The notes under the pieces were generated by a model, which saw nothing but the letters and a program-made list of their open reading frames with translations, had not been told where the DNA came from and searched no databases. A stretch of 56,055 nucleotides of DNA from a virus (taxonomy: Duplodnaviria > Caudoviricetes): positions 1 to 56,055 of the IMG/VR virus record IMGVR_UViG_3300030107_004870; one strand, written 5' to 3'. Positions within the stretch are counted from its first letter, which is position 1. Each line of letters begins with the position of its first letter. Positions 5,400-52,593 of the stretch are shown piece by piece. A program made the position numbers and the translations under genes.

Positions 5400-5822
5400 T
5401 TAGAAGCTTGGGTCTCTGTATTTTTCTTTCATACCGAAAACGATAGGATATTTATTCTTGTTATTAACCAAGACATAATTACCCTTTTCGTTTTTATAAA
5501 CTTCTTCGTAAACTCTGCCTTTGAGAACGCCATCTTCGTAGACATCAACCTCTCTAACATAGTAAACAGCACCATCAGGGTTTTCGCTATAAACGTATTC
5601 TTGACCTTCGCTTAGCATACTACCAGAGACTAATTTAGCATTGTCTTCTTGAAGCTTTAATATTCTGCTTAAAGCCTTTTTGCCAACTTTGAAATCAGCA
5701 ACAACAGATAATGGGTATCTGTCAGAATAAGCCATATAAGTTGCACCATCACCAACTTTTGGCTCATTGCCAAGCAGATAACCCTTTCTACTCATTAGCC
5801 TGTTTAGAACACTTCCACCCAT
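5400..5822 (-). CDS. Hypothetical early phage protein
   Basis: ORF with GDGAT..YSDRYP and C-terminal YRDPSF; ATG 5822 preceded by AGGAGGT. Confidence 0.8.
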   Translation of the reverse strand: MGGSVLNRLMSRKGYLLGNEPKVGDGATYMAYSDRYPLSVVADFKVGKKALSRILKLQEDNAKLVSGSMLSEGQEYVYSENPDGAVYYVREVDVYEDGVLKGRVYEEVYKNEKGNYVLVNNKNKYPIVFGMKEKYRDPSF

Positions 5823-6004
5823 GATTAACACCTCCTTTTATTTAGTTTTAAATTAATCATATAGTTATATTACACTATTTGTAATTATTTGCAACTATTT
5901 ACAAACATTTATTTTTATTTATTTATGTATAAATAGTTGTACATTTGTGCAAAAACATGTAATATGTATATGTAATGATTAAATATAAAAAGGAGGAAAA
6001 ATGA
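5820..6004. promoter_or_regulatory. Back-to-back early sigma70-type promoters with AUG-starting leaders
   Basis: Minus: TTGCAA-16-TAATAT-AACTAT-ATGATTAA; plus: TTGTAC-17-TAATAT; both followed by AGGAGG. Confidence 0.8.
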
Positions 6005-6156
6005 GTGTTGCCACTTTAAATGAGTCTCTTGCTGTGTACGACAGAATGTTCGATGAGCAAGATAGAAGAGAGTATTTTGTGGCTATAGAAAATTTGTTCT
6101 TATACACTTGTTTAGTCACTACTATTGGTTGTCTTTACTTTTACTTAAACTTTTAA
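6001..6156 (+). CDS. Small protein with C-terminal hydrophobic segment (51 aa)
   Basis: Manual ORF MSVATLNESLAVYDRMF...TTIGCLYFYLNF with SD AGGAGG. Confidence 0.65.
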   Translation: MSVATLNESLAVYDRMFDEQDRREYFVAIENLFLYTCLVTTIGCLYFYLNF

Positions 6157-6166
6157 AGGAGGAGCC

Positions 6167-6487
6167 ATGAAGCTCATAACTAAAGAGATAGAGAAAAAAC
6201 TATCTAAAAACAAAGGCGATGGTCAGGACAAGCCATACCTAAAATTGTTCAGCCCGACAGGTGGTTCCACTTGGCTTATCACTAAAAAAGATGGCGACCT
6301 TTTGTTTGGTCTTTGCGACTTAGGACAAGGCTGCCCGGAAGTAGGTTATGTAAGTCTCAAAGAGCTTGAAGCCATCAAGCTGCCTTACAATTTAAAAATT
6401 GAAAGAGATAAGTGGTTTGAGCCAAAGATGAGTCTTTCAGAATATGCTGACAAAGCTAGAGCTGAGGGAGGTATCTATGCTTACTAA
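6167..6487 (+). CDS. DUF2958-like protein
   Basis: KLFSPTGGSTWLIT...LFGLCDLGQGCPEVGYVSLKEL...IERD signature. Confidence 0.8.
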   Translation: MKLITKEIEKKLSKNKGDGQDKPYLKLFSPTGGSTWLITKKDGDLLFGLCDLGQGCPEVGYVSLKELEAIKLPYNLKIERDKWFEPKMSLSEYADKARAEGGIYAY

Positions 6488-6737: not shown

Positions 6738-6770
6738 ATCTTTATATTTTTATATACAATGTACGACATT

Positions 6771-6935: not shown

Positions 6936-6937
6936 TT

Positions 6938-20111: not shown

Positions 20112-20194
20112 TTGTTTGTAAATAGTTGCAAAAGTTTGTAAATAGTGTACTATAACTATATGATTAATAAAAAATTATGGAGGAAATAATCATG
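20112..20194 (+). promoter_or_regulatory. Early promoter with tandem TTTGTAAATAGT boxes and leaderless uORF
   Basis: TTGCAA-16-TACTAT-AACTAT-ATG (20160-20189, MINKKLWRK*), SD GGAGG, main ATG 20192. Confidence 0.8.
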
Positions 20195-20476: not shown

Positions 20477-22399
20477 ATGGATAACTTCGATTTAGATTGG
20501 TCTCCAAAGCAAAAACTACCTGATGGCAGGTATGTAGAAGAAGCAGAGCTTAATAAAAATAACAGTGAGCTTTTTTGGTCTGTCTGGAGAGAAGAAAAAA
20601 TTGCTCTTAAAAAGTCAGGGTATGCTGTGTCAAAAGATAATGACGATGTTTGGATTGTTAAAAGATACTCTGATGATTTAAACATTTTAGAAAAATCACA
20701 AGCTGTAGACTCTGATAAAAGTTATCCGGTGCCAGCTGGTCTTGATTACTATGGTTATCAAAAAGCCGGCATTGAGTATTGCTTAGACAAAGATAACATT
20801 TTGATTGGCGATGAAATGGGCTTGGGCAAAACTGTTCAAGCTATTGGCGTTATCAACGTCAATAAACCAAAAAATGTTTTAATTGTTTCGCCAGCTTCTT
20901 TAAAGCTTAATTGGAAAAAAGAATTAGAAACTTGGTTGGTAGACCAAAGAGATATTCAAGTTATCATGTCTGGTAAAGACAGCCTTAATGATAAGCAAGA
21001 TATTGTAATTATCAATTATGATGTCTTGCAAAAGTATCAAGATTTGCTTGATAAGAAATGGAGTCTTGTCATTATGGATGAGGTTCACTATCTAAAAAAT
21101 CCTGATGCCCAAAGAACTAAAGCAGCTTTAAGCGTTCAAGCAGACAAAAAAATTATGCTGACAGGAACTCCTATTCCTAACAGACCTATTGAGATACAAG
21201 CAGTAGCTGGCTATTTAGACAACAAATCATTTGGTAATAGATTTGGGTTTGGTAAAAGATATGCTGGATTACACAAAAAAAGAGTCAGCAGAACTAGAGA
21301 GGTTTGGGATTGGAGTGGAGCTTCTAATTTAGATGAGTTGCAAAGAAGACTTAGACAAAGCTTCATGATAAGAAGAAAAAAAGATGAGGTTTTAAAAGAC
21401 TTACCAGCTAAAGTAAAACAAATTATTGAACTGCCTTACGAGCTTTACAAAAAAGAAATCAAAGCAGAGTATTCAGCTTTTGAAGATTACAACAAAAAAA
21501 ACCAAAATCCTAATGTAGACCCTTACAGTCTGGATGCAGAACAATTTTCTTCTAAAGTAGATTTTATAAGCATGTCATCTGAAAGAAGAGCAACTGCTGA
21601 GAAAAAAGTTAAAGCGGTTGTTGAACACCTTGAGTCATTCAATGAGCCGGTTGTTGTAATGGCACACCACAGAGATGTTATTGCTCAGTTAGAAATAGAA
21701 CTTAAAAAGCAAGATAAAAAAGTTGTGGTGCTTACCGGAGAAAAAAATCAAGTAGAAAGAAATGAAGCAGTTGAGGCTTTTCAAAATGGTCAAGCTGATG
21801 TCTTCATTGGCAGCATTAAAGCTGCTGGTGTTGGTCTTACTCTAACCAGAGCATCTAAAATGGTTTTTGCAGAGCTTGATTGGGTGCCATCTGACATAGC
21901 TCAAGCAGAAGACAGAATACACAGAATTGGTCAAGAGTCTTCTGTCTTAATACAATATATTGTTGTTGAAGGCTCTCTTGATGCAGTCTTCGCTAAAAAG
22001 ATTGTTGATAAAACCAAAGTAGCTGCTAGAGCTCTTGATAATGTAGTGGTTGAGAAAAAAATCGAGATACCAGAGCTTATCGAAGAAAACAAAGAGCTTA
22101 ACAAGGTAATCAAAAAAGCTAGAGTAAAAGTCAAAGCCAATCAAATAGCTGAGTCTTTATCATTAGAAAAAGTAGAGTTGCTTCAAAAATTCATGAAGTT
22201 TCTTTCTTCAAGATGTGATGGTGCCCTAGCACAAGATGGTGTTGGCTTTAATGGTGTTGATAAAGACTTCGGTGCTTCTTTAGCAAGACAAAATAGCTGG
22301 AGCATGGCTCAACAAAAAATTGCTTACAAAATGCTTAAAAAATACAAAAGACAATTAGATGAGCTTGATGATGAAGGTTATAACATTCTTTACAATTAA
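20477..22399 (+). CDS. SNF2-family (SMARCAL1/HARP-like) helicase/translocase
   Basis: GDEMGLGKT, MDEVH, LTGTP, GVGLTL, QAEDRIHRIGQ motifs. Confidence 0.92.
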   Translation: MDNFDLDWSPKQKLPDGRYVEEAELNKNNSELFWSVWREEKIALKKSGYAVSKDNDDVWIVKRYSDDLNILEKSQAVDSDKSYPVPAGLDYYGYQKAGIEYCLDKDNILIGDEMGLGKTVQAIGVINVNKPKNVLIVSPASLKLNWKKELETWLVDQRDIQVIMSGKDSLNDKQDIVIINYDVLQKYQDLLDKKWSLVIMDEVHYLKNPDAQRTKAALSVQADKKIMLTGTPIPNRPIEIQAVAGYLDNKSFGNRFGFGKRYAGLHKKRVSRTREVWDWSGASNLDELQRRLRQSFMIRRKKDEVLKDLPAKVKQIIELPYELYKKEIKAEYSAFEDYNKKNQNPNVDPYSLDAEQFSSKVDFISMSSERRATAEKKVKAVVEHLESFNEPVVVMAHHRDVIAQLEIELKKQDKKVVVLTGEKNQVERNEAVEAFQNGQADVFIGSIKAAGVGLTLTRASKMVFAELDWVPSDIAQAEDRIHRIGQESSVLIQYIVVEGSLDAVFAKKIVDKTKVAARALDNVVVEKKIEIPELIEENKELNKVIKKARVKVKANQIAESLSLEKVELLQKFMKFLSSRCDGALAQDGVGFNGVDKDFGASLARQNSWSMAQQKIAYKMLKKYKRQLDELDDEGYNILYN

Positions 22400-22553: not shown

Positions 22554-23471
22554 TTAAGCTCCTTGGGAACCATAGATACCTCTCCAATTAGAGAAGCCAA
22601 AAGAATATCTTTCTCTAGCTTTGTATCTAATGTTGCCTGTACTAAAGTCAGGCTCCATGTTGGTTTCCATTCCGGTTCTTTGGAACATTTTTAGACCTTC
22701 TCCTTGCTCTGTAATAGAAGTCAATAAGAAGAAAGCGTCTGGGTCATTAAGGTAATGATTTACTGTGTAGCCACCGGGTAATACACCTGTATTTTTGATA
22801 GCGTTTAAATCATTATCCGCAGTACCGACTCTTTGTGGAGAGTTCAATATTCTGTCAGCAACAAAAGTTAATTGTGGTGGTATCACCAATTTTGTTGCAT
22901 TCACAGAAATAGTTAAACCTCTGTCGTCTGTAAATGTAGATATATCAATTAAAGCATCCTCTAATGAAGTTTCATTTAAGTCAGCCATAGTGCTAGCTCT
23001 ATTAGCAGCAGTTCCACCACCTGCTAAGGGGTGGGCTGTGTTAATTAGAGAAACACCATCTCCGCCTGTAAATGAAGAACTAAACGCATTGTTTAATACG
23101 TTTGCTCCTTTTACTTCTTTAGTGTTAGCCATACTTCTAGCTAATGCTTTAGTATATCTTTTACCAAGTGAGTCATATAAATTATCCTCAACAGCTTCTT
23201 CTGTCAAAGCAAAAGCCAACGCAATAGTATCATGCGTGTATCTTGCAGTGTAAGACTCAGAAGCGTTGTCGAATACAACTCCTTGCCCTTCGGATTTATC
23301 CGGAGCCGAACCAAAACCAACGATTAATACTTCTTCCTCGAAAGCTCTTGAAGAGTCTTCAATAGAAAAAATTTCAGCATATTCTTGGTCGTAAGTATCA
23401 TACTCCATACCAAAAAGTGCGTTTAAACCCGGTTCTAATTCAGCTGCTAGTTGTGCTCTTGAAATTGCCAT
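22554..23471 (-). CDS. Major capsid protein (Mu gpT-like, HK97 fold)
   Basis: MAISRAQLAAELEPGLNALFG...RYKARERYSFG..WRGIYGS; size and position; terminator downstream. Confidence 0.88.
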   Translation of the reverse strand: MAISRAQLAAELEPGLNALFGMEYDTYDQEYAEIFSIEDSSRAFEEEVLIVGFGSAPDKSEGQGVVFDNASESYTARYTHDTIALAFALTEEAVEDNLYDSLGKRYTKALARSMANTKEVKGANVLNNAFSSSFTGGDGVSLINTAHPLAGGGTAANRASTMADLNETSLEDALIDISTFTDDRGLTISVNATKLVIPPQLTFVADRILNSPQRVGTADNDLNAIKNTGVLPGGYTVNHYLNDPDAFFLLTSITEQGEGLKMFQRTGMETNMEPDFSTGNIRYKARERYSFGFSNWRGIYGSQGA

Positions 23472-28953: not shown

Positions 28954-29166
28954 TTAATGCAAGACTCTTTGTTTTTGTTCAATAGCAAAAGCAATTATAC
29001 TTTCTTCTAAATATTTGTCAGTTTCTATAGTATCAATTATTTCTCCATCAATAAACAAACCTTGTGCGTCTGCTATACCTTGTGCTTTTTCTAAATTTTC
29101 AGCATAAATACTAGGTCCTTCGTAAGCAACTCCATCATGTAAAAAGCTGGTTAAGAAAATTTTCAT
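28954..29166 (-). CDS. Hypothetical protein
   Basis: ORF between TerL and portal. Confidence 0.65.
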   Translation of the reverse strand: MKIFLTSFLHDGVAYEGPSIYAENLEKAQGIADAQGLFIDGEIIDTIETDKYLEESIIAFAIEQKQRVLH

Positions 29167-29167
29167 T

Positions 29168-30655
29168 TTAGTAGTATATCATTCTATCTTTTCTCAAGCC
29201 CTGCATTTCTTCTTGATAATCTTCATGCAAAGATACAAAGCCTCCTTGTCTAAATCTCATTAAAGCCATAGTAGAGCTATCGCAAAAATCATCATAGTCG
29301 CCAAAAGGAAAGGAAGCCATTTCTTCTATTACATCTTCTGCAAATTTTTCTTCTGGTGCCCAAACCATGCCAGATTCAAAAATAGGTGCAACGCTGTTCA
29401 TTCTGGCTATTTTGTCTTGTCCTTTGCTAGGAGAGTATGATGTGACAGGTATGCCCATCCTTCTAAGCTCTTGAGCTAAAGGCGTTCCGGAAGCTTTAGC
29501 TTCAATCAATACACAATCTGGTTCCCAATATTTATATTCTTCGTAGGCTTGTTTTTTTAACTCAGGAAAATCAACTCTAAATCTTTTTGCGTCAAGTAAA
29601 ATAATATTTGAAGAGCCATCATCTTCGCTTTCAAAAACTGCCCATGTAGTTATGGCACTATAGTCAGCAGTTTCTTTTTTTGAAAAAGCAGTATCATAAC
29701 TTTGTATTACATAGCTGTATGGCGGAACTCTTTCTCCATGCCATGTTCTCCACCACTCTCTTTTTACTATACTACCTTCTTCTGCTGTAGGATTTTGTAG
29801 CCATTGAGAGTTCCATTTGCTGATAGGCAGAGATGCTTTAACACCAAGTAATTCTTCTTTTTTCCAAAACTCTCCCCACAAAGGATTGTTTGTTTTAGGC
29901 ATTAAAGCTGGAAATTCAACTATATCCCATTGGTCAGCGTTTTCTTCTCCTTGTTTTTTTAAAAGTTTACCAACTAAATCTTTAGTGCTCCATCTGGTCA
30001 TAACTATAATAATAGTTCCGCCCGGCTGTAATCTTTGTCTTGGACCAGATGTGTACCAATCATAACAAGACTCCAAAGCTTTTGGAGACAAAGCATCTTG
30101 CTCAGAATGAGGGTCGTCAATTATTAATAAATCAGCACCACGACCTGTAATTGCTCCGCCAACACCAGCATAGAAAGCTTCGCCTTCTTGATTGGTTGTC
30201 CATCGACCAGCACTTTTATTATCAGCTTGCAAGCTGAGGTTAGGAAATATAAATTTGTAATCTTCGCTATCAATTAAGTTTCTTACTTTTCTGCCAAACC
30301 TTACAGCCAATTCTGCTGTGTGAGTACATTGTATTATTTTTAAACTGCCATTTAAGCCCATCAACCAAGCTGGTAAAAAAGTAGAAGCAAATTCTGACTT
30401 AGAGTGTCTTGGCGGTAAACAAACAATTAATCTTTTAAGTTTGCCCTGTGCAATTCTGTTAAATTTTTCTGCAATTATTTTGTGATGTTTGCCTTGTATA
30501 AAAGCATCACCCCACATGTGTTTTACAAATTTTAAAAAATCTTTTTGACAACCATCTTGTTTATCTATTTGTTCGTATCTTGATAAAAGAGTCATTGCCT
30601 CTTCTTTTTCTGAGGGAGATAAAATATCAAAGTCTTTAAACGATATATCTTTCAT
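29168..30655 (-). CDS. terL: Terminase large subunit
   Basis: Walker A-like PPRHSKS, Walker B LLIIDDP, nuclease SYDTA, IEAKASG and YDDFCD. Confidence 0.95.
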   Translation of the reverse strand: MKDISFKDFDILSPSEKEEAMTLLSRYEQIDKQDGCQKDFLKFVKHMWGDAFIQGKHHKIIAEKFNRIAQGKLKRLIVCLPPRHSKSEFASTFLPAWLMGLNGSLKIIQCTHTAELAVRFGRKVRNLIDSEDYKFIFPNLSLQADNKSAGRWTTNQEGEAFYAGVGGAITGRGADLLIIDDPHSEQDALSPKALESCYDWYTSGPRQRLQPGGTIIIVMTRWSTKDLVGKLLKKQGEENADQWDIVEFPALMPKTNNPLWGEFWKKEELLGVKASLPISKWNSQWLQNPTAEEGSIVKREWWRTWHGERVPPYSYVIQSYDTAFSKKETADYSAITTWAVFESEDDGSSNIILLDAKRFRVDFPELKKQAYEEYKYWEPDCVLIEAKASGTPLAQELRRMGIPVTSYSPSKGQDKIARMNSVAPIFESGMVWAPEEKFAEDVIEEMASFPFGDYDDFCDSSTMALMRFRQGGFVSLHEDYQEEMQGLRKDRMIYY

Positions 30656-31181: not shown

Positions 31182-31523
31182 TTACTCCACTTCTGTAATA
31201 GTCCTGTAATAAACAACAACTTCTTTAAGTTCGCTTATGTACCTTTTCAATTCTTGCATGTTATAAGACATTAGTTCGTAATCAGGAACAGACATGGCTA
31301 AAAAAACCACTGTACCATTTTGTTTTTTCATTTCTTCTACAAACTCATCAAAGTTTTTTTTAGACACTACATACCAAAAAGGCTCTTTCAAATCTAAAGC
31401 AGTTGGCAAGTTTGGATGAATTATTTTTCTCTCCAGAGGAGAAGAAATCATTTCAACTTTATTTGGTATCAGACTGCAACTTAAAGTCATCAGCACTATC
31501 AATAATCCTGCTAATTTCTTCAA
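31182..31523 (-). CDS. Outer-membrane spanin (lipoprotein)
   Basis: TTG start, KK + hydrophobic stretch + lipobox-like TLSC; overlaps end of i-spanin. Confidence 0.7.
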   Translation of the reverse strand: MKKLAGLLIVLMTLSCSLIPNKVEMISSPLERKIIHPNLPTALDLKEPFWYVVSKKNFDEFVEEMKKQNGTVVFLAMSVPDYELMSYNMQELKRYISELKEVVVYYRTITEVE

Positions 31524-31851
31524 TGTTGTTAAACACTTGTTTTGTTCCATTGTTTACCCTTGTTTGTATTAAATTTGGTTTTGCTATCGCAAGTTTTGTT
31601 AAATTATGCCTTCTAAAAATAGCCAAATAATTATCCATTTCTTTTTGGATTTTTTGGTTTTTTGCTTGTAAATTTAATAAGCTTTTTGATTGCAAAGCAA
31701 AGTCTTTTTGTAATTTGTCTAAGGTTTGTTTTTGTTGTGCGTCTCTTGTTTCGTATGCGATATTTAATTTTTTTAAATTTTGATTTTCATACCACATATA
31801 CGAAAGACCAACACTCATAACAAAAATAATTCCAAATAAAAATTTACTCAT
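31459..31851 (-). CDS. Inner-membrane spanin
   Basis: N-terminal TM helix then coiled coil, in lysis cassette. Confidence 0.7.
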   Translation of the reverse strand: MSKFLFGIIFVMSVGLSYMWYENQNLKKLNIAYETRDAQQKQTLDKLQKDFALQSKSLLNLQAKNQKIQKEMDNYLAIFRRHNLTKLAIAKPNLIQTRVNNGTKQVFNNIEEISRIIDSADDFKLQSDTK

Positions 31852-32785: not shown

Positions 32786-34009
32786 CTATGCTGTTCTTTT
32801 CCACATATATACGACTATATAGGGTTGTAAGTTATTGTGAGCTGAACCACTACCTGTAGAACCTGACGCTCTAGTTCCTTGAGAAGTTGAACCAGAAGAA
32901 CCTAGTGGAAATGTTCCATTAACTCCAGAAGATACTTTAGTTTCTACTGTATGCGTGTGTGCTGGTAGTTCGCTTGTTGTAAGTGTATGAGTTTTAGCAC
33001 CACCTGTTTCTTCTGCGGTATCAAAATCTGAATCAGATGAATCAATACCTACAGGAACTTTACCTGCACCAAAAGCTGCCCATGTTCCAAAACCTAATAA
33101 AGTACCGGGATTAGTGTTGTTTGTTGCATTTATATAAATTGAGCCGACAGGATATACAGCAGCTAAAGTTGTTTTGGTATCTATTTGAGTTTGTATAGCA
33201 GAAGTCACACCATCTAAATATCCTAATTCTGTTGAAGTCACATCGCTAACTGAAACATCACCACTACCATCAGAAACCAAAGCTCTTGCTGTAGTAAGGT
33301 CAGCCATTTTACTAAAAGCAATAGCAGCACTTGCAGAAACGCTTGCATTTACCACAGCGTTGCTTGCTAATTGGTCTGCACCTACAGCATCATCTGCAAT
33401 CATAGCCTGTTCTACTGCATCATTAGCAATGGTTATGGCACCATTAGCTGCAATAGTAGCGTCTCCACTCATTGCCACAGGATTGTAGTTTGTGCCATCT
33501 GCTACTAAAACATGACCGCTTGTATTTGTGCCCATTTTTAAATCATCGCCTTCTATTGTTAAATCTCCAGATAAAGACAGGTTATTAAAAGCGTCATAAA
33601 CAACAGCACCAGAGCCTCCGCCATCAAGCATTAAAACTTTTGTGTTGCCATTTGCTACTGTAATAGATGCTCCAGAGCCCTGCGAAATTGTAATACTTTG
33701 ACTTCCAGACGTAGCATTTTCTATTATTATTATTTTTGAAATAGTGTTAGGAGCTATAGTCAAAGTTCTAGTAGCTGACAAGCTTACGCCAGAAGTCACT
33801 TTTACATAAATAGCTCTATATTTATCACTTGTGCCATCTGCTACAGTCGCTGTCACATCAGCATCGCTTGAAAACGTAGCTTCTGTTTGATATGAAAAAG
33901 CATCTGTTATAAGGCTTAAATTTGTATTTGTAGTGACACCCCAAGTACCAGATTGGTCTCCTGTGCCCATTTCATTTAGTCTTAAATTATTATTATATGT
34001 ACTTGCCAT
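32786..34009 (-). CDS. Tail fibre protein with collar/gp10-like C-terminus
   Basis: MASTY..GTWG.TTN N-terminus; YPVGSIY, GGAKTHTLT..ELPAH, HNNLQPYIVVYMWKRTA. Confidence 0.8.
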   Translation of the reverse strand: MASTYNNNLRLNEMGTGDQSGTWGVTTNTNLSLITDAFSYQTEATFSSDADVTATVADGTSDKYRAIYVKVTSGVSLSATRTLTIAPNTISKIIIIENATSGSQSITISQGSGASITVANGNTKVLMLDGGGSGAVVYDAFNNLSLSGDLTIEGDDLKMGTNTSGHVLVADGTNYNPVAMSGDATIAANGAITIANDAVEQAMIADDAVGADQLASNAVVNASVSASAAIAFSKMADLTTARALVSDGSGDVSVSDVTSTELGYLDGVTSAIQTQIDTKTTLAAVYPVGSIYINATNNTNPGTLLGFGTWAAFGAGKVPVGIDSSDSDFDTAEETGGAKTHTLTTSELPAHTHTVETKVSSGVNGTFPLGSSGSTSQGTRASGSTGSGSAHNNLQPYIVVYMWKRTA

Positions 34010-35275: not shown

Positions 35276-36586
35276 TTATTCTTCTATTGGTTTAAGTGGT
35301 TCAATTATTACTTTTCCATTTTCATCAGTCCAACTTGTATCAATCATGTGTTGGTCTTGTCTTTCACCAATTACCATCCAAGATACAGTTGCAGTTGATT
35401 CTGAATTTTGTGATTCAATGGTAAGTACATTACCTGAAATACTTCCTTTGACTGCATCCCAGCTTGATTCGTTTGAAGTAAAACATTGAACATCTGTATT
35501 TAAAGCTACAAAAGTTCCTTCAGTCATACCTGCTACAGTATCAATATTAATTGTTGCTGTACCATTTATTAAATCTACTTTACCTCTATAAATATTATCT
35601 GCTTGTGGACCTTCTACAAAAGAATGAATTAAATAATGTGTATCTTTTTTAGCTTCTAATGGATGGTCAATTTTAAATGACCCAGAACCTTTTGACAAAG
35701 AACCAGAAATACTAACATTTCCAGAATTATTTACAGTTAAACCACTTGAACCTGAATTACCTAAACAAATTGTGTTGTCTCCTGAAGCCGAACCTGCATT
35801 ACCATAAAGACCTTGTGTAGATATAGTTCCATTATTAGCTTTTACTTTAAGTTGGACCGGTACTGTATCGCCATTTCCATTAGCTTCAAATATTGATGCA
35901 ACTGAGCCTGTATGACCATCCACAGTCATTGGTTTATTGAATGTAGCAGCACCAGCTTCGGAACTATCTATAGTAAGTGCTGTAATACTTGAGCCACCAT
36001 CATTGACTTTAAAAAGCATATCGGCATCTGACCTTTCACTTTTTACAATAAAGTTTGTGCCATCATTTTCTAAAGAACCAAATTGTGTGCCATCATCTTG
36101 TAAATTTATATCTCCACCACCACAATCTAAAACAATATCTCCTGCAACATCAATAGTTAAATTGCCACTAGATAAATCTATTTCTGTACCATCAATAGTA
36201 ATGTTGTCTACAGTAATACCACCATCGACATCTAGTGTTCCCGGAAGTGTGACATTACCACTAGCATCTTCATGCACAGCTTTACTTGCAGGCATGGTAC
36301 AAAATACATCTTTAGTTCCTGAAGAAAAATTAACTGCGGAGTCTGAGTTAGAACTGCTTATGACTGTAGTTCTAGCCAATGTGTCTGGAGAAGCATCGGT
36401 CACTGTGCCTAAACCAACTTCAAATTCTGCTGCTGTTTGATGAGCGATTGCGTAGTAAGTAGTATTAGAATTACCAATTCCTGCTACAAAAGTTTCAAAG
36501 CCGGTTTCGGCTCCAGCTAAATTAACTGTGCCTGTTCCGGTTGTAGTAGTGGTTTCTTTTACTCTGTCGTTTAATACTAATGCCAT
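35276..36586 (-). CDS. Tail fibre/spike with C-terminal intramolecular chaperone-like domain
   Basis: MALVLNDRVKET..EVGLGT N-terminus; GSFKIDHPL..LIHSFVEGP..YRG C-terminus. Confidence 0.8.
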   Translation of the reverse strand: MALVLNDRVKETTTTTGTGTVNLAGAETGFETFVAGIGNSNTTYYAIAHQTAAEFEVGLGTVTDASPDTLARTTVISSSNSDSAVNFSSGTKDVFCTMPASKAVHEDASGNVTLPGTLDVDGGITVDNITIDGTEIDLSSGNLTIDVAGDIVLDCGGGDINLQDDGTQFGSLENDGTNFIVKSERSDADMLFKVNDGGSSITALTIDSSEAGAATFNKPMTVDGHTGSVASIFEANGNGDTVPVQLKVKANNGTISTQGLYGNAGSASGDNTICLGNSGSSGLTVNNSGNVSISGSLSKGSGSFKIDHPLEAKKDTHYLIHSFVEGPQADNIYRGKVDLINGTATINIDTVAGMTEGTFVALNTDVQCFTSNESSWDAVKGSISGNVLTIESQNSESTATVSWMVIGERQDQHMIDTSWTDENGKVIIEPLKPIEE

Positions 36587-38715: not shown

Positions 38716-39513
38716 TTAATGTAAGCCTTGTACTTTTCTGTTTAAGATAGCTTTTACTCTGTGATTAGGAAAGCTGCCTTTGTATTGCGGAAAATATTCT
38801 TCAAGCTGCTTGGCTATTTTTCTGTAGCCTAAGCCTCTGTCTCTTAGTTTGTAAATAACTTCCAATACTTTTTGTTCTTCTTCGTTTGGTATAAGTTTCA
38901 TTCTTCTTTTAATTCTGTTTCCGGACTTAACTTTTTCTTCTACCTTGTCATAACCAAAAGGAGTAGAGCCACCAATGGAATAGCCTTTAGGTGCCCAAGC
39001 TAATTTGCCTTCTTTGAATTTGTCTACAGTAGAGCCATGTTCTATTTCTGCTACTGCTGATAAAACCATAACCATAATCTTATTAACCATCTCATTCATA
39101 TCAAACTTAGAGTGCAAGCTCGACTTGTTTTTTTTCTTAGGATAAGAAATTGGCATGTCGCCAAATTGCTCACAAAGATAATAAGTTATTCCGGTCTCTT
39201 CAAAAATAGGTATGGTTTGCAATAAATCTCCAGAGCTTCTTGATAATCTATCAAGCCTAGTTGAAACAATAATGTCGTGCTCATCCATTACATCAGTAAG
39301 TTCTCTTGAGCCTTTTCTTTCGGTTATTGGTACAGTGCCTGATACTCCAGCATCAATAAAAAACTTATCAACTTGTTTGTTAAATTTATTCATAACAAAC
39401 TCATTGATTAATTGTTTTTGTGTATCTATAGAAATACCATTTACTGCTTGCTCTGTAGTAGAAACTCTTACATAGCCATAAATGTTGTTTATTTGTTTAT
39501 TAGGACCAATCAT
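38716..39513 (-). CDS. Serine recombinase (resolvase domain + short recombinase-type C-terminus)
   Basis: YGYVRVST catalytic Ser, DAGVSG, RLDRLSR, GGSTPFGY. Confidence 0.92.
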   Translation of the reverse strand: MIGPNKQINNIYGYVRVSTTEQAVNGISIDTQKQLINEFVMNKFNKQVDKFFIDAGVSGTVPITERKGSRELTDVMDEHDIIVSTRLDRLSRSSGDLLQTIPIFEETGITYYLCEQFGDMPISYPKKKNKSSLHSKFDMNEMVNKIMVMVLSAVAEIEHGSTVDKFKEGKLAWAPKGYSIGGSTPFGYDKVEEKVKSGNRIKRRMKLIPNEEEQKVLEVIYKLRDRGLGYRKIAKQLEEYFPQYKGSFPNHRVKAILNRKVQGLH

Positions 39514-39540: not shown

Positions 39541-39628
39541 GTTTGTAAATACTTGTAATAATTTGTAAATAGTGTATTATGACTATATGATTAATTATAA
39601 AAACAAAGGAGGTGTTAATCATGGCTGA
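39541..39628 (+). promoter_or_regulatory. Early promoter with tandem TTTGTAAATA boxes and leaderless uORF
   Basis: TTGTAA-16-TATTAT-GACTAT-ATG (39587-39628), AAGGAGGTGTTAATC-ATG 39621. Confidence 0.8.
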
Positions 39629-39839
39629 AAAAGCTAGAAAATATAAAATTCCACTTAATGTAAATGCTAAGCTGGGTGCTGATAAGGCAGCTAGCTTAAT
39701 TAAAGACAGCTTAGAAGTTTACCAAAGAGCACAAAAAAATAACCCAAAAGACCCAAAGGGTAATTATGATGCTCTTGAGCTTGATTATTTAGTTTGGGCT
39801 CTTAAGAAAGTTCTTAAACAAGTTGAAGGAGGTGCTTAA
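39621..39839 (+). CDS. Hypothetical early protein
   Basis: Strong SD, first gene of early operon. Confidence 0.75.
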   Translation: MAEKARKYKIPLNVNAKLGADKAASLIKDSLEVYQRAQKNNPKDPKGNYDALELDYLVWALKKVLKQVEGGA

Positions 39840-39841
39840 TC

Positions 39842-40135
39842 ATGAATGAAGAAAAGAAAGTGAAACAGTTTAGTAATTTAGGAATATGGGTACAACATCC
39901 TAGTAAAAGAAAACAGTTAATTTGGGAAAAGTTAGTAGAAGGCGATGTTTTAGAAGATAAAGATTTGATTAACAAAGTTAAAGAACTATCGCAAAAATCA
40001 CCACCTTATAAAATATGGAAAGCAGGTAGATTAGCGTCTGGTTCAAAAAATTGTTTTGAAGATTATAAACAACGTACTAACAAAATTTTTCAACAAAAAG
40101 AAAAAGATATAGTGGATAAAGGAGAATATAAATGA
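39842..40135 (+). CDS. Hypothetical early protein
   Basis: SD GGAGG. Confidence 0.7.
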   Translation: MNEEKKVKQFSNLGIWVQHPSKRKQLIWEKLVEGDVLEDKDLINKVKELSQKSPPYKIWKAGRLASGSKNCFEDYKQRTNKIFQQKEKDIVDKGEYK

Positions 40136-41043: not shown

Positions 41044-41155
41044 AGAAGCTTTGGATTTAATTTACAACGAGCTTTACAGCAATGGTAAAAACAGAAGAAA
41101 CAAAAAACTAGATGCAGCAATGGATGTTATTACTGAAAAATGTATGAGTAAATAG
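41033..41155 (+). CDS. Small hypothetical protein (40 aa)
   Basis: Manual ORF METKEALDLIYNELYS..., SD AGGAGG. Confidence 0.6.
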   Translation: METKEALDLIYNELYSNGKNRRNKKLDAAMDVITEKCMSK

Positions 41156-41231
41156 TTGCACATTTTTGTAAAAACATGTAATATGACTATATGATTAATT
41201 CAAAAAACAAAAAAGGGAGGTGTTAATCATG
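41150..41231 (+). promoter_or_regulatory. Early promoter with leaderless uORF
   Basis: TTGCAC-17-TAATAT-GACTAT-ATG (41191-41226, MINSKNKKGRC*), GGGAGGTGTTAATC-ATG 41229. Confidence 0.8.
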
Positions 41232-43655: not shown

Positions 43656-43685
43656 AATGAAAAGATAGAATGATATACTACTAAA

Positions 43686-44618
43686 ATGAAAAGAGGATTA
43701 ATTTTAGTAGCAGGATTATTACTAGCATACAATATTCAAGCAGCTCAAACAGGAGATTGTAGTGCTGGACAACAGTATTGTGAACAAAACAGTTTAAACA
43801 CTACGAACACTACTACTACTAATAATACTAATACGAATACTAACACCAATAATAATACTAATACCAATACCAATACCAATACCAATACTAGCACTAACAC
43901 TAACACTAATACTAGTACAGCTACGAACACTAATACTAATACTTCAACAGTAAGTTCTACTTCAACTCAAACTGCTACAAACAATAACACAAATAACAAC
44001 ACTAATACTAATAACAACACTAGCAACAGTACATCTAATGTCACAACAGCTAACTCAAATACAAACACTAATAGCAGCACTAACACTAATAATAACAACA
44101 ATACCTCTAGCTCAACACAAACCATAGAGCAAGACATTAAATCTCCTCCAGCCTCTGCGATTGCTCCTAGTATCATGTCTTACTCACAAGACCTTTGCAC
44201 CACAGGCGTGTCAGGTGCATTTCAAGGACAACTTTTTGGTTTTTCTACCGGTAAATCTGTACGAGATGAAAATTGTGAACGCTTAAAACTTTCTAAATAC
44301 TTATACGATTCTGGCATGAAAGTAGCTGCTGTATCTATTCTTTGTCAAGACCCTAGAGTATTTAAAGCTATGCGTATGGCAGGTACTCCTTGTCCTTTCT
44401 TTGGTAAAGTTGGTGATGAAGCTGCAAAAGCATGGGCTTATAGTCCAGAAAAAATGCCTACTTATGAATTAGATAAAAAAGAATTTTTTAAAGTTTGTAC
44501 AAAAACTAGATGGAAAAATGGCAAGTATCAAGGCATACCTAAAAGCAGAGCTTCTTGTCAAAAAGAACATTACGCTTTACTAGAAGCGGAAAGAGCAAAG
44601 TATAAAAACGATGGTTAA
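43686..44618 (+). CDS. Secreted Cys-rich protein with Asn/Thr low-complexity repeat
   Basis: Signal peptide MKRGLILVAGLLLAYNIQA; ~110-aa (NT)n tract; PPASAIAPS..DLC..CERLKL..CQDPRV..GTPCP domain. Confidence 0.8.
   Translation: MKRGLILVAGLLLAYNIQAAQTGDCSAGQQYCEQNSLNTTNTTTTNNTNTNTNTNNNTNTNTNTNTNTSTNTNTNTSTATNTNTNTSTVSSTSTQTATNNNTNNNTNTNNNTSNSTSNVTTANSNTNTNSSTNTNNNNNTSSSTQTIEQDIKSPPASAIAPSIMSYSQDLCTTGVSGAFQGQLFGFSTGKSVRDENCERLKLSKYLYDSGMKVAAVSILCQDPRVFKAMRMAGTPCPFFGKVGDEAAKAWAYSPEKMPTYELDKKEFFKVCTKTRWKNGKYQGIPKSRASCQKEHYALLEAERAKYKNDG
43797..44120 (+). repeat. Degenerate hexamer microsatellite (AAYACN)n encoding NT repeats
   Basis: aatacc/aatact/aacact arrays in frame. Confidence 0.85.
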
Positions 44619-48053: not shown

Positions 48054-48215
48054 TTATCTTCTTTTTTTTGCTTTAGATTTTTTTTTGATGCTTCCACCTT
48101 TAGACTTCTTCATCATCATACCGCCTTTAGACTTCTTCATCATCATGCCACCCTTAGACTTCTTCATGATTTTTCCGCCTTTGGATTTTTTTATAGGTAA
48201 TCTACTTTGTTTCAT
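48054..48215 (-). CDS. Basic 53-aa protein with four KKSKGG repeats (27-bp tandem repeat)
   Basis: Manual ORF MKQSRLPIKKSKGGKIMKKSKGGMMMKKSKGGMMMKKSKGGSIKKKSKAKKRR. Confidence 0.7.
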   Translation of the reverse strand: MKQSRLPIKKSKGGKIMKKSKGGMMMKKSKGGMMMKKSKGGSIKKKSKAKKRR

Positions 48216-49266: not shown

Positions 49267-51969
49267 TTAAGCTAATCCAGCAATTCCTTTAAATTGCTCT
49301 GGAACACTATAGCTAGATAATAAATCATCTAGTTCTGTTTTTTTAGGGTCAAATTCTGCATCACTTCTTCTGATATTTTTAGGGTCAAAAATGACTGTTT
49401 CATCGCCAACCTTTATGCCATCGTAGCCGGCTTCGATTGCTTTATTGGTTAATTTTTCTGGTCCTACGCCACCAAATCTAACAAATTGGTCTAAATGAAA
49501 AAGAGTATTTTGCATGGGAAATATAGATGATATTCCTTGTGACATTTGAGGCGTGTGTTGTGCACTAAAAATTAAACTTTCTTTTAAATCTTCTATTGCA
49601 TCTTCTTTTGTTAAAGGAAAAGGTCTTTCTGGTATGCCTCTAACAGGGCTGTCAAAAATTTCTCCTTTAATTGCTGGGTGCGGTACCCTTGCCATAAATC
49701 CTTCTGTGTCATCATAATTTTTTGCTTTTATAAACTTTACATTTTTTTCAATGTAGTCATCAATTTTATCTAAAGATGCTAAACCTTGTTTTGTTGGCTC
49801 ATCTAAAGCTCCTATTTTGTCTAGTTTAGCAGCCCAAGATTTGAATTTTTCAGTTGTATCTAACGATGTAGGTGTTAAGTCTAATAGCTTGCCTCTAGTA
49901 AAATATTCTTCAACTTTCGGTCCATAATAACTTGCTTCTCCCGGTGTTCTTGCAAAATAATGACCTCTACCAAAAAAACCTTCGTCTAAGTTAGTTCCTA
50001 TAAATCTGTCATCAAATTTTTTTAAATCTTCATAAGTTCCATGATAAACAGGCTTATCAACTCGGAAACCTAGTTTCTCTGCTCTTTCTAGTTTTGGGTT
50101 TTTTTTTATAACATCTTCTACAGTATCTGCTGCTTTAATAATTCCACCAAGTTTTTTACTTTTAACGCCTAAAGTAGCTTTTAATGTTTTTGGTTGCTTT
50201 TTAGGGTCGTTGTAAGTTTTAGCTGTGACTTTATCGTAAACCGGATGTTTTTTTCCTCTTACGCTAATTTCGCCAACTTGTTCTCCTTTGATAACTTCTC
50301 CTTTAAGTGTAGGTTTAAGTCTAGGCTCTGATTTGCTTTGATATTTTTTAAGTTCTACGCCCTCTGGAAAATCAGTTTTTAGCGTATAAATATGCTTGCC
50401 TCCTGTTTCTACAGATATTATTGGAAAGCTGCCAGCAGGATTAGGGTCATAACCTTCCGGAACTTTTGTCCACTCCCAACCTCTTTGTTTTTTAAAAAGG
50501 TTTGTTTTAATTATCTTACCATCTGCGGATGGTAATTCATCATAGGTTTGTGAAGATACTCTAAATTGTGCTTTGCCATCAGGACCAATACTAATTTGAC
50601 CTGTTGCAGGCTTAGTACCAGAAATGTCTGCACCTGTGCCAACATCAATAAAAGCTCCTTCTTTGCCTTCATCCATTAGTCTTTGTGGTTTAGGAAATAC
50701 TTGCCTGTCTAAAAATAATCCAGAAAGAGATGTCAAACCTCTTGGCTTTGTTTCTTTGCCGACAATTTGTCCATAAGTTTTGTACATGTCGTCAAGCTGT
50801 TGTTTTGCATCAACGAGCTCTGGAACATCTTGTATTTTTCTTTTGCCTTGAAAATATTCTCTCAACACATTGTCTGTATAACCACCTGTTGTAGGGTCAT
50901 AACTTTGCAAAGTAAATCTTTTATCTCCTTTGCCTAGTCCTAATTCTTCAAAAGTTCTTTTTTTTGATTGGATGGCTCTTTTTAGAATACCTTCTGGTGT
51001 ACTGCCTTTTTCAAACTGACCGAGAGCTCCTAAAAATACTTTTGGTCTACTTACTCTTTTATCGTCAAAAAAGTTTTTTGAAAGCTTTGCGTCATAGCCC
51101 ATATCTAAATCTACAGGGTTTACTCTTGGATTGTTGTAAATATACTTTTCGTTAAAAGGAACTTTATAAACAGAACTAGGAGGTATATCTGTAAGGTCTA
51201 CTAAAACTTCTCCTTCTGTTAAGCCAGCATCAACTATGTAATCTACATCTTTTCTTTGTCTTGTACGACTTGGCACTTGTTTTAGCAAAGATGGTACAAA
51301 AGCCTGTACTTTTTCTAAGGGAACATCGTATCTGTAAACAGATGCTGGTCGTTTTAAGGTTTTGCCGAAATTAGGAGAGTTGATGCCTGCTGCCATTAGT
51401 TTCATGTCTTGACCAATAGCCATAACAGGGTCTAATCTTAAAGAAGTAGACCTTATGCCTTTTTCTGGAACAAATTCTTTGTCCTCTGCAATGTTTAAAA
51501 CTCGATATAAAGATAAAGTGCCATCAGGATTAATTTCATTTTTTAATTCATCTAAAGATAATTGCCTTAGCTCAGGTCTGTTTTCTACTATTTCATCTAT
51601 ACCTGTAAATCTAGCAAACTCATCTCCTCCTTTTTTTCCACCGATGCCTTTGATATGTGCAAAAAGTTTTTCTGAGTCTTCTTTTGTTAATTTTTTTACT
51701 TCCTTTACTGCTTCTGCTGCTTTTACCAAGCCACCAAATTTCATTTCTGGCACTTCTGCATTTGTTTTGGTTGTTTTTTCATCCATATCCATCAAGATAC
51801 CTGCTGCCAAAGGCACAGGAATAGCAAATCTTTCTGCAATAGAGATAATTCTAGGGTCTAAAATCACATAATTGTTTTTTTCTCCATCTGTGTATCTAAT
51901 TCCTTTTTGGTCTTTGACAAGACCACCAACTTTATATTGCGGAATAGAAAAAATATCGACATCAGACAT
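49267..51969 (-). CDS. Polyvalent protein with two ADP-ribosyltransferase-like domains
   Basis: R-S-E ART pattern LYR..STS..EGEV; ART-PolyVal pattern YHGT..GRGHYF..GYDGI..ETVIFDP..I; N-terminal ART remnant GIRY.DG..NYVILD. Confidence 0.75.
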   Translation of the reverse strand: MSDVDIFSIPQYKVGGLVKDQKGIRYTDGEKNNYVILDPRIISIAERFAIPVPLAAGILMDMDEKTTKTNAEVPEMKFGGLVKAAEAVKEVKKLTKEDSEKLFAHIKGIGGKKGGDEFARFTGIDEIVENRPELRQLSLDELKNEINPDGTLSLYRVLNIAEDKEFVPEKGIRSTSLRLDPVMAIGQDMKLMAAGINSPNFGKTLKRPASVYRYDVPLEKVQAFVPSLLKQVPSRTRQRKDVDYIVDAGLTEGEVLVDLTDIPPSSVYKVPFNEKYIYNNPRVNPVDLDMGYDAKLSKNFFDDKRVSRPKVFLGALGQFEKGSTPEGILKRAIQSKKRTFEELGLGKGDKRFTLQSYDPTTGGYTDNVLREYFQGKRKIQDVPELVDAKQQLDDMYKTYGQIVGKETKPRGLTSLSGLFLDRQVFPKPQRLMDEGKEGAFIDVGTGADISGTKPATGQISIGPDGKAQFRVSSQTYDELPSADGKIIKTNLFKKQRGWEWTKVPEGYDPNPAGSFPIISVETGGKHIYTLKTDFPEGVELKKYQSKSEPRLKPTLKGEVIKGEQVGEISVRGKKHPVYDKVTAKTYNDPKKQPKTLKATLGVKSKKLGGIIKAADTVEDVIKKNPKLERAEKLGFRVDKPVYHGTYEDLKKFDDRFIGTNLDEGFFGRGHYFARTPGEASYYGPKVEEYFTRGKLLDLTPTSLDTTEKFKSWAAKLDKIGALDEPTKQGLASLDKIDDYIEKNVKFIKAKNYDDTEGFMARVPHPAIKGEIFDSPVRGIPERPFPLTKEDAIEDLKESLIFSAQHTPQMSQGISSIFPMQNTLFHLDQFVRFGGVGPEKLTNKAIEAGYDGIKVGDETVIFDPKNIRRSDAEFDPKKTELDDLLSSYSVPEQFKGIAGLA

Positions 51970-51988
51970 GACGACAATTTTATATCTT

Positions 51989-52477
51989 TTAAGGATTGTT
52001 TAAAACTATATTTTTACACCACCAAAGCAACATATCAGCAGACATAGTGTGCTTCATAATATTTACTCTATGGCAAACCAACTGTATGTTTTCTTTGTTA
52101 TAACCAAAATCCGGATTAATTCTATCAAGTGAAGCATTAAATTCTTTTTTACCAGAACCATCTTTAGCAGTGGTCATTAAAATTCCGGAAATAGCACACT
52201 TACCATTTTGCTCATCCCACAGAGCCAACAAATCTTCTTTTTCTATTTCCCAAGGCAGCTCCGGATTATCTTTTTTTCTCGAATACTTTAGCTGCGAAAA
52301 AATTAACTTTAAATACTTCGCTGGCTCACTAGCACGACTTTTGTTTCTGGACATTGCTCGACATTGACGACATTTGCGACTGCGAGAAATCTTGCCTGCT
52401 TTATTAATGTTAGTCTCAAAAAAGTTAAGTGGTTTTTCTTTGCGGCAAGAAGCACAAACTCTGGAAGGTTGTAGCAT
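51989..52477 (-). CDS. Zn-binding HNH-like endonuclease
   Basis: CxxC..CxxC, QNGKCAISG, SLDRI..GY...NIQLVC..VN. Confidence 0.75.
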   Translation of the reverse strand: MLQPSRVCASCRKEKPLNFFETNINKAGKISRSRKCRQCRAMSRNKSRASEPAKYLKLIFSQLKYSRKKDNPELPWEIEKEDLLALWDEQNGKCAISGILMTTAKDGSGKKEFNASLDRINPDFGYNKENIQLVCHRVNIMKHTMSADMLLWWCKNIVLNNP

Positions 52478-52517
52478 GCAAAACATTATAAAGAAAAAAT
52501 TATAAAAAAAAACAATA

Positions 52518-52593
52518 TATACATTTTTGTAAAAGTGTGGTAAAATGTACAAATGGCAAAAATTTAACAAAATTTAAGGAGGTCAAAAAAATG
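52518..52593 (+). promoter_or_regulatory. Early promoter with leaderless uORF
   Basis: TATACA-17-TAAAAT with extended TG; ATG 6 nt later (52553-52567, MAKI*); SD AGGAGG before 52591. Confidence 0.65.

Follow-up and report, generated by a model that had tools for sequence, protein, structure and literature searches.

A promoter and leader cassette in a complete viral contig

The stretch of DNA that we analyzed (the window) is a complete viral contig of 56,055 bp from IMG/VR (Caudoviricetes; record IMGVR_UViG_3300030107_004870; CheckV estimate, 100%; ~35% G+C). The system in question is a promoter and leader cassette, present there in several copies, in which a start codon falls at or near the predicted transcription start and opens a mini open reading frame (mini-ORF) ahead of a gene led by a Shine-Dalgarno (SD) sequence, whose start codon we call the real ATG. 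An initial annotation had reported an ATG exactly 6 nucleotides (nt) past the -10 box at five loci, and all of the coordinates and peptides that it gave were confirmed (Table 1). Four of these loci (5860 on the minus strand and 20160, 39587, and 41191 on the plus strand) are four copies of one repeated cassette of ~60 to 70 bp and are not independent of each other; the repeat matches among the copies are D7 (70 nt, 86%), D10 (71 nt, 76%), I1 (82 nt, 82%), I2 (69 nt, 84%), and I3 (55 nt, 87%). An exact 13-mer, CTATATGATTAAT, occurs four times (5852-5864 on the minus strand, 20156, 39583, and 41187), and the reversed control pattern occurs nowhere in the window. When up to two mismatches are allowed, seven matches are found against a shuffle mean of 4.09, with 15 of 100 shuffles reaching 7, so that only the exact copies of CTATATGATTAAT matter.

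The four copies share a layout consisting of AAATAG, a -35 box (TTGCAA, TTGTAA, or TTGCAC), 16 to 17 nt, TG, a -10 box (TAATAT, TACTAT, or TATTAT), 6 nt, and ATGATTAAT, downstream of which come an A-rich stretch, GGAGG(TG), and then (T)TAATCATG. A sixth locus of the initial annotation, at 5975 on the plus strand, represents a fifth copy of this cassette in variant form (repeats D10 and D14). Both the ATG-TAA at 5970 and the peptide MIKYKKEEK* described for it are present, but the seventh base past the -10 box is G5972, the ATG-TAA straddles the predicted start, and ATGATTAAA would lie at +4. The locus at 52553 has an unrelated extended -10 promoter and is not a cassette copy; its promoter is conserved in one relative (L143; L-numbered labels denote relatives or cassette matches in the comparison set). 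Five of the six mini-ORFs run across the SD and end 2 nt before the real start codon or overlapping it, as originally described, the exception being MAKI* at 52553, which stops 25 nt before the SD. Across the window, an ATG at an offset of 6 nt past any extended -10 sequence is not enriched (4 sites versus 0 to 7 at other offsets).

We also observed 10-bp units of the form AAATAGTTGY in and upstream of the -35 box. Tandem arrays of as many as three units are present in L144, L126, and L148, and the units of the window lie 20 bp apart as TTGTAAATAG, at 20116 and 20136. The units may represent a regulator or UP-like site.

Table 1. Coordinates in the window of the promoter and leader cassettes, of the separate promoter at 52553, and of genes with family matches
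Feature	Position	Strand	Details
Cassette copy 1 promoter	5867..5900	-	AAATAG, -35 TTGCAA (5894-5889), 16-nt spacer, -10 TAATAT (5872-5867)
Copy 1 predicted leader	5820..5860	-	predicted +1 A 5860; real ATG 5822-5820; 9-bp stem, -5.7 kcal/mol
Copy 1 mini-ORF MINLKLNKRRC*	5860-5825	-	TAA 2 nt upstream of real ATG
Variant copy promoter	5931..5965	+	-35 TTGTAC (5937-5942), 17-nt spacer, -10 TAATAT (5960-5965)
Variant copy predicted leader	5970..6004	+	ATG-TAA at 5970, 4 nt past -10; no hairpin (0 kcal/mol)
Variant copy mini-ORF MIKYKKEEK*	5975-6004	+	ATGA overlap with real ATG at 6001
Cassette copy 2 promoter	20120..20153	+	-35 TTGCAA (20126-20131), 16-nt spacer, -10 TACTAT (20148-20153)
Copy 2 predicted leader	20160..20194	+	real ATG 20192; 7-bp stem, -2.2 kcal/mol
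Copy 2 mini-ORF MINKKLWRK*	20160-20189	+	TAA 2 nt upstream of real ATG
Cassette copy 3 promoter	39547..39580	+	-35 TTGTAA (39553-39558), 16-nt spacer, -10 TATTAT (39575-39580)
Copy 3 predicted leader and mini-ORF MINYKNKGGVNHG*	39587..39628	+	ends 8 nt inside gene (real ATG 39621); 9-bp stem, -5.2 kcal/mol
Cassette copy 4 promoter	41150..41184	+	-35 TTGCAC (41156-41161), 17-nt spacer, -10 TAATAT (41179-41184)
Copy 4 predicted leader	41191..41231	+	real ATG 41229; 9-bp stem, -5.0 kcal/mol
Copy 4 mini-ORF MINSKNKKGRC*	41191-41226	+	TAA 2 nt upstream of real ATG
Separate promoter	52538..52593	+	extended -10 TGgTAAAAT (52538-52546), 6 nt, ATG 52553; SD, real ATG 52591
Mini-ORF MAKI*	52553 on	+	stop 52565-52567, 25 nt upstream of SD; no 5'-end stem
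Primase (VapE/Toprim)	579-2753	-	family match
SNF2 helicase	20477-22399	+	family match
Capsid	22554-23471	-	family match
Large terminase	29168-30655	-	family match
Baseplate Gp10-like	32786-34009	-	family match
Small resolvase (265-aa serine recombinase)	38716-39513	-	Resolvase N-terminal domain, E = 4 × 10-20
Polyvalent ART protein	49267-51969	-	family match

The cassette family in related contigs

Promoter-pattern scans of viral and metagenome contigs recovered the cassette on dozens of uncultured contigs, where it lies ahead of many different genes; the same leader type is found ahead of different genes, and the same gene is found behind different leaders. The metagenome matches carry record names in the style of marine surveys. 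With a 14-base pattern, only single chance matches were obtained in viral contigs. In an unbiased sample of 41 unique cassettes, obtained with a scan pattern that did not include the start codon, bases 7 to 9 past the -10 box read GTG in 16 cases, ATG in 11, and another triplet in 14 (RTG, where R is a purine, in 27/41). As a control, bacterial genomes were scanned with this pattern; of the 111 chance matches obtained, 6 have RTG at the corresponding offset. The 111 matches are scattered across phyla, none has the cassette flanks, and no host is indicated by them.

The commonest type in the relatives has ctat followed directly by GTGAGA, versus ctat followed by ATGATT in the type represented in the window (hereafter, the window type), and the two differ at the +1 base. 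The "ATG-TGA" that lies 4 nt past the -10 box in GTGAGA-type relatives fills the same columns. GTGAGA is invariant over its 6 nt in all 23 leaders of that type. Given that either GTG or ATG stands at +1 across the family, the family rule is RTG at +1, not ATG. The motif search in related phages that the initial annotation had proposed upheld the wide occurrence of the cassette but not the specific need for an AUG, since 8 of the 18 distinct window-type leaders have GTG at this position. On the best reading of these comparisons, the module has the form AAATAGTTGCAA, 16 to 17 nt, TG, TAWTAT, 6 nt, RTG, and would be a portable sigma-70-type early promoter and leader common to a clade of uncultured marine phages.

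Two further groups of matches were observed. Seven (L150, L152, L155, L167, L169, L194, and L202) have the same promoter with no RTG at +1 (cagcct followed by ATATCTAGGAACTTAATTATTTGCGCAGATTG); this class has no SD-led gene within ~85 nt and may give a noncoding RNA or a long leader. The -10 box with a GTGAGA start is also present in larger viral contigs of 78 to 146 kb (L359, L365, L368, and L373 to L375), where GTGAGAATACTCTTGC follows, with an open +1 frame of 21 to 22 codons and no nearby SD.

Promoter register and predicted transcription start

Sigma-70-type features are present in all of the copies, and the hexamer columns are conserved across 41 to 69 unique cassettes. In the -10 column (TAATAT, TACTAT, TATTAT, CATAAT, and TATATT), A-2 and T-6 are kept across all cassettes. 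The cassette scores 8/12 against the textbook consensus, which is below the threshold of a generic promoter scan. The predicted +1 is the purine 7 nt past the -10 box, i.e., the first base of ATG in the window and of GTG in many relatives.

A second register, TTGTAA-17/18-TATGAT, overlaps this one, places the ATG inside its -10 box, and is listed by the generic scan at three of the four loci (5885-5856 on the minus strand, 20136-20164, and 41166-41195), where it scores 9/12 versus 8/12 for the register with ATG at +1. Its use would put the start ~7 nt further downstream; alternatively, the conserved block and the inverted repeat formed by the 5' end and the start-codon region (see below) could be DNA sites of a regulator, as the AAATAGTTGY repeats resemble protein sites and ATTAAT is palindromic. 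We consider either possibility very unlikely. Eight of the 18 distinct window-type leaders have G rather than A at +1 (10 ATG, 8 GTG), which turns TATGAT into TGTGAT with loss of the key A. The same A/G swap is seen between orthologous promoters, namely, 39587 (ATG) versus L236 (GTG), L135 and L233 (ATG) versus L225 (GTG), and L227 (ATG) versus L120 (GTG). As GTG at +1 destroys the TATGAT box, the register with the start codon at +1 is the conserved one, and the TATGAT register was rejected. Moreover, neither the 5975 copy nor the GTGAGA type has such a second promoter. The operator interpretation was rejected because the spacing between the two arms is variable (15 to 23 nt), unlike in a dimer operator, and the A-to-G changes in the arms preserve RNA pairing but not DNA palindromy. 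A third, upstream register (TTGTAA-17-TAAATA) is present only at 20116 and, not being conserved, was also rejected.

SD-less full-length genes at this position

In three relatives (L127, L128, and L132), an ORF of 299 aa starts at an ATG 6 nt past TATTAT and has no SD. It matches PHROG 7245 (anti-restriction; E = 6 × 10-60), with residues 2-296 aligned to profile positions 2-309, and carries the Pfam domains ArdcN and MPTase-PolyVal. A second long SD-less ORF occupies the same position in L159, and both of these long cassette genes use ATG. The ArdC gene of L127, L128, and L132 is thus predicted to be leaderless, and the fact that it begins at base 7 past the -10 box provides independent support for the predicted start at that base.

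Comparable arrangements outside the cassette were noticed in the window. A perfect 34-nt repeat in inverted orientation (29160-29193 on the minus strand and 43659-43692 on the plus strand) ends in an extended -10 sequence, TGaTATACT, followed by 6 nt and the ATG of ORFs 43686-44618 (plus strand, 310 aa) and 29166-28954 (minus strand, 70 aa); both ORFs are without an SD and therefore are candidate leaderless genes. This layout is preserved in L121 and L122, in one of them ahead of a different gene. The ORF at 31459-31851 (minus strand, 130 aa) likewise has no SD and, with TGtTAAAGT plus 6 nt upstream, is a candidate for a leaderless start. Within ORF 43686-44618, repeats of 9 to 18 nt at 43781-44122 encode a Thr/Asn-rich run behind a hydrophobic N terminus, and the product is possibly a surface or secreted protein.

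The reading frame that opens at +1

We scored stop codons in the 37 distinct leaders that have an RTG start and an SD-led start within ~75 nt, using the variable part of each leader (after base 9 to 5 nt before the real start); other cassettes were not scored. The frame opened at +1 contains no stops in any class: 0/125 codons in the window type, versus 7/113 in the second frame and 13/112 in the third; 0/106 in the GTGAGA type, versus 8/103 and 13/92; and 0/19 in the remaining leaders, versus 0/18 and 1/16. In an enlarged GTGAGA-type set of 23 leaders, the corresponding counts are 0/168, 15/162, and 15/150. The off frames therefore carry ~9% stops, versus none in the +1 frame of the scored leaders. 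From the enlarged set, 26 further matches with no SD-led start within 80 nt had been dropped; in two of these (L357 and L358), codon 3 is an in-frame stop.

The asymmetry was evaluated at three levels of independence. Among 55 leaders, with each stop triplet counted as one event per class and position, we found 38 events, 5 of them in frame and 11 and 22 in the off frames (binomial P = 4 × 10-3). The five in-frame events comprise three from a misregistered leader (L175), one from a probable chance match (L382), and one from the 52553 type. A cluster-level test (19 clusters, 3 closed) gave a P value of 2 × 10-4; both this value and the event-level one were obtained with the artifacts left in. 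The most conservative hand count, with five independent leader families, gave a P value of about 0.03. Because the tests are post hoc and were applied to leaders of common descent, we grade the signal as moderate. On this footing, it suggests that the stop-free +1 frame is kept open by selection.

The ways in which this frame meets the first gene are also nonuniform. Among the 18 window-type leaders, the TAA of TTAATCATG is in frame in 12, the frame reads into the gene out of register in 5, and it is in frame with the gene in 1. In the GTGAGA type, it is in frame with the gene in 12/23, ends at or over the start codon in 6/23, and reads into the gene out of register in 5/23. The out-of-frame register thus appears to be underrepresented in both types. 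The same element, TTAATCATG, joins two real genes at 39836..39844 on the plus strand, where the TAA at 39837-39839 ends ORF 39621-39839 and the ATG at 39842 starts the next, and this TAA-TC-ATG junction (39837-39844) is identical to the mini-ORF/gene junctions. L137 has lost the 3' stem arm, yet it retains a mini-ORF stop that overlaps the start codon (TAATG). In the 5975-type leader of L137, a 6-nt insertion preserves the frame.

These observations bear on the possibility that the mini-ORFs are relics. The module could have arisen ahead of leaderless genes such as ArdC and recombined ahead of SD-led ones, with the RTG persisting as initial transcribed sequence and the mini-ORFs being by-products. 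The free combination of leader types and genes would fit such a history, as would the conservation of the whole block tat-RTGA along with the promoter, the invariance of GTGAGA in 23/23 leaders, the lack of an A excess at +1 (A:G, 10:8), and the fact that 1-nt indels in the poly(A) stretch flip the mini-ORF frame between close relatives (38 versus 37, 38 versus 39, and 32 versus 31 nt). We nevertheless regard it as unlikely, because stop avoidance in the +1 frame reaches the variable part of sequence-divergent leaders, the register that reads into the gene out of frame is underrepresented, and the insertion in L137 preserves the frame.

Predicted pairing of the 5' end with the start codon

The initial annotation had described a hairpin, with the SD in its loop, between the 5' end and the real start codon at four loci. 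This pairing was recovered as the minimum free energy (MFE) fold at all four of them (Table 1), with z scores of -2.27, -0.83, -2.14, and -1.99 in the order 5860, 20160, 39587, and 41191. In all four window copies, the U of the real AUG is the partner of base 1, and the loop contains the SD. Window-type leaders form a weak duplex between their first 7 to 9 nt and UUAAUCAU, which is located at the real AUG; in 23 of 24 of these leaders, pairing between base 1 and the U of that codon is part of the MFE fold. Positions in the stem are paired in 155 of 162 instances, versus 24 to 65% when the partner strand is slid by 1 to 4 nt. Furthermore, TAATCATG stands behind the SD in 4/4 cassette-proximal first genes, versus 1 of 61 other crudely defined SD-led ORFs, the single case being the gene-gene junction. 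This near-confinement of TAATCATG to cassette genes indicates that the two arms of the stem belong together.

C-1 and the start codon's AU lie in the stem and the SD does not, so that no sequestration of the ribosome-binding site by a stable duplex is seen. RNAalifold found compensatory double changes in 0 of 7 consensus pairs (covariation term, -0.16), and covariation thus lends the stem no support. The only variation in the arms consists of one-sided A-to-G changes opposite U, which are compatible with G-U pairing. The stem is absent at 5975, at 52553, and from most GTGAGA-type leaders; in a subset of the latter (L151, L158, and L179), GUGAG.CAU pairs with AUG.nCUUAC, and the start codon again lies in the stem. 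We conclude that the stem is probably real but accessory, and that a pairing requirement, with C-1 and the AU of the real AUG as partners, accounts in part for the 5' AUG in window-type leaders.

Two readings give the stem a larger role. In the first, the selected feature would be structural only: the pairing of bases 1 to 9 with the start-codon region would protect the transcript from 5'-end-dependent decay and/or tune initiation, the AUG being there just to pair with CAU and the mini-ORFs having no effect. The recurrence of the fold, its sharp loss when the partner is slid, the pairing-preserving changes, the alternation of A and G at +1, the distribution of TAATCATG, and the use of different bases for the same end in L151, L158, and L179 all speak for it. 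It is also consistent with the statements in one report (PMC3997798) that RppH requires at least 2 unpaired 5' nt and that 5' stem-loops stabilize mRNAs. We consider it possible but rather unlikely, as it leaves the stop-free +1 frame unexplained and as no such stem accompanies the RTG at or near +1 in 5975, 52553, and most GTGAGA-type leaders, L137 having lost it as well. In addition, the stems have little stability (-2.2 to -5.7 kcal/mol; z scores as poor as -0.7) and show no compensatory changes.

The second reading, which was that of the initial annotation, is an obligatory switch: the hairpin would block the real start, and its opening and the supply of ribosomes would depend solely on translation of the mini-ORF. 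The stem does include the AU of the real AUG, and precedents exist for the separate elements: ribosomes engaged on a leaderless short ORF can block a structure in which the next gene's ribosome-binding site is sequestered (Canestrari et al. 2020, bioRxiv 10.1101/834739), and a 5'-terminal upstream AUG (5'-uAUG) of ptrB is described as needed for downstream 30S binding (PMC4965119). However, with stems of -2 to -6 kcal/mol, the SD remains unpaired in an open loop, the SDs match 7 bases of GGAGGTG, both frame and start codon vary between close relatives, and the stem is missing at 5975, 52553, and L137. Such a switch is therefore improbable.

A predicted leaderless loading module

We favor, at a probability of roughly 0.4, a portable early promoter module with RTG at +1, leaderless ribosome loading, handover to the first gene, and an accessory stem. 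Its observed basis comprises a module that is repeated in the window and shared among relatives, an RTG at the canonical +1 position, SD-less genes at that position in relatives, a stop-free frame, the junction types, and a conserved weak stem. Transcription is predicted to start at the R of RTG. Because the same geometry apparently drives full-length SD-less genes, the host probably translates 5'-terminal start codons. Ribosomes would load at the 5' end in the leaderless mode and read across the SD, and they would then be reused at the first gene by termination-reinitiation or produce an extended isoform. In the window type, the translated frame would end 2 nt before the first gene's start codon or overlapping it, and in the GTGAGA type, it would continue in frame into the gene. 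The leaderless route would add to ordinary SD-driven initiation. With leaders of 31 to 39 nt, there is no room for one ribosome at the 5' end and another at the SD at once, so that the two routes would have to alternate. When no ribosome is bound, the pairing in the window type would make the 5' end double stranded, which could protect or mask it.

The interpretation in the initial annotation is supported in part, namely, by the promoter geometry that places a start codon at the predicted +1, by the SD-less ArdC gene with the same geometry, by the stop-free frame, and by the TAA-TC-ATG junction. The obligatory switch, the need for AUG, and a fixed mini-ORF frame, the last of which is altered by the 1-nt indels, are not supported.

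Several findings weigh against the module that we favor. The 5' RUG lies inside the stem, which should hinder 70S loading, and the strong SDs (GGAGGTG) in the open loop mean that coupling is not needed for expression. The frame flips between close relatives, and the peptides are not conserved beyond what an A-rich leader and an SD dictate: they are K/N/R rich, have at most one terminal Cys (MINLKLNKRRC and MINSKNKKGRC), and are not conserved between leader types. The 52553 mini-ORF stops in frame after four codons, and this is so in L143 as well. The P values for stop avoidance are post hoc and range from ~0.03 to 2 × 10-4 depending on how independence is counted, i.e., a moderate signal. The invariance of GTGAGA over 6 nt suggests a constraint at the nucleic acid level beyond the start codon. 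Finally, A and G alternate at +1 among window-type leaders, and GTG starts in 8/18 of these and in all of the GTGAGA-type leaders mean that the model needs a host that accepts GUG; in Escherichia coli, a 5'-terminal GUG (GTG) gives <10% of the activity of AUG (ATG) (Shell et al. 2015, PMC4633059). A more general form of the model, which we advance tentatively and hold to be doubtful, is that every early transcript from the module is dual mode, with 70S ribosomes loading on the 5' AUG or GUG followed by either a stop/start handover or in-frame reading, in a low-GC marine host with no actinobacterial sign, where leaderless initiation would take place both at AUG and at GUG.

Gene content and other features of the window

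No near match for the window was found among 50,697 phage records, and protein searches against cultured phages gave distant matches only (32 to 38%) or none. Searches of the window recovered no Rfam matches and no tRNAs. A gene of the WhiB family was looked for and is absent, and there is thus no pointer to an actinobacterial host. The plus-strand clusters behind the promoters described above consist of small ORFs, mostly without family matches. The serine recombinase gene (Table 1) is divergent from the 39587 promoter.

Many long minus-strand, presumably late, genes have no SD (e.g., those starting at 36586, 34009, 35009, 30655, and 25524), and the plus-strand early genes have a strong GGAGG. 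A possible late promoter, AGTATATAAT, precedes the ATGs at 36586 and 34009 by ~25 nt. The ends of the window (1-405 versus 55657-56055) carry imperfect repeats (204 nt at 93% plus 114 nt at 82%), both inside minus-strand ORFs, which could be terminal redundancy or two variants joined by assembly. Four tandem 27-nt repeats lie in a coding region at 48071-48205 on the minus strand.

Significance and comparison with known systems

Leaderless initiation on SD-bearing mRNAs has been seen for individual mRNAs in E. coli and on a genome-wide scale in mycobacteria. Here, one mobile module sets a start codon at the predicted transcription start ahead of many early genes in many phages. Its natural variant series (AUG versus GUG, three frame relations, and stem present or lost) allows a direct test of 5'-terminal start codons. 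If the dual-mode interpretation is true, the promoter module doubles as a portable ribosome-loading device. The finding further suggests efficient translation of leaderless mRNAs in the host and possibly in many other bacteria of marine origin, which is relevant to gene calling in viromes, as the ArdC gene of the relatives and three SD-less ORFs in the window start right at a -10 box.

Literature searches on leaderless mRNAs, phages, early promoters, and upstream ORFs, which did not extend to subscription journals and supplements, recovered no description of such a phage module, and a text search with the cassette 11-mer recovered five unrelated papers. The portions of the phiKZ differential RNA sequencing (dRNA-seq) study covered here (PMC8244752) report no leaderless phage transcript, and the corresponding portions of studies on AR9 (PMC5312081) and sk1 (PMC10986495) mention leaderless mRNAs in passing. 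The general idea is of an already known kind; what is new is the mobile phage promoter module, its occurrence in low-GC marine phages, the stem between the 5' end and the start codon, and the family-wide stop avoidance.

Shell et al. (2015, PMC4633059) described hundreds of short ORFs at transcript 5' ends, with an overrepresentation of RTGA-coupled pairs. As in these mycobacterial leaderless short ORFs, the short ORF here is the first cistron, and the same classes of ends are seen, namely, a stop upstream of the next start, RTGA overlap, and in-frame continuation; in both cases, structure at the initiation region of the next gene could be opened by ribosomes on the short ORF. Unlike them, the present system is a phage promoter module, repeated in one genome and shared between phages, in low-GC DNA with no WhiB gene. 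It also differs from the mycobacterial attenuator of Canestrari et al. (2020): poly-Cys-type enrichment in a sensed amino acid is not seen in our peptides, and the stem pairs the 5' end itself, which is a predicted one, with the start codon and leaves the SD free. In E. coli, 70S ribosomes bind 5'-uAUGs on SD-led mRNAs with variable downstream effects, and the inability of ribosomes at the 5' end and at the SD of ptrB to coexist is discussed (Beck, Fleming, and Janssen 2016, PMC4965119). That system resembles ours in combining a 5'-terminal AUG, an SD-led gene, and a short leader (26 nt in ptrB), with a standby or loading role proposed, the 5' terminus here being predicted, at five loci. It differs in that those are scattered cases with effects of either sign, whereas we observed one conserved module, often with GTG for ATG and with stop avoidance.

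The lambda cI gene transcribed from PRM is a leaderless phage gene, and its geometry of a -10 box, 6 nt, and ATG is that of ArdC in the relatives and of the SD-less ORFs at 43686, 29166, and 31851; at the cassette loci, in contrast, the ATG opens only 4 to 13 codons ahead of an SD-led gene. The cI gene is named as the leaderless standard in PMC4965119. The 5'-terminal stem-loops of ompA, papA, and aprE are cited as mRNA stabilizers in PMC3997798. Ours are similar in that the stem starts from the very first base (if the start is as predicted) and the ribosome-binding site is near, but they are weak and AU rich, have a loop of 15 to 23 nt, and take in some of the start codon. Where genes overlap or abut, termination-reinitiation junctions have the forms TAAnnATG, ATGA, and TAATG. 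The mini-ORFs end in exactly such junctions, as exemplified by the pair of real genes joined by TTAATCATG, with the difference that the upstream cistron here has only 9 to 13 codons, and the downstream gene's SD lies inside it.

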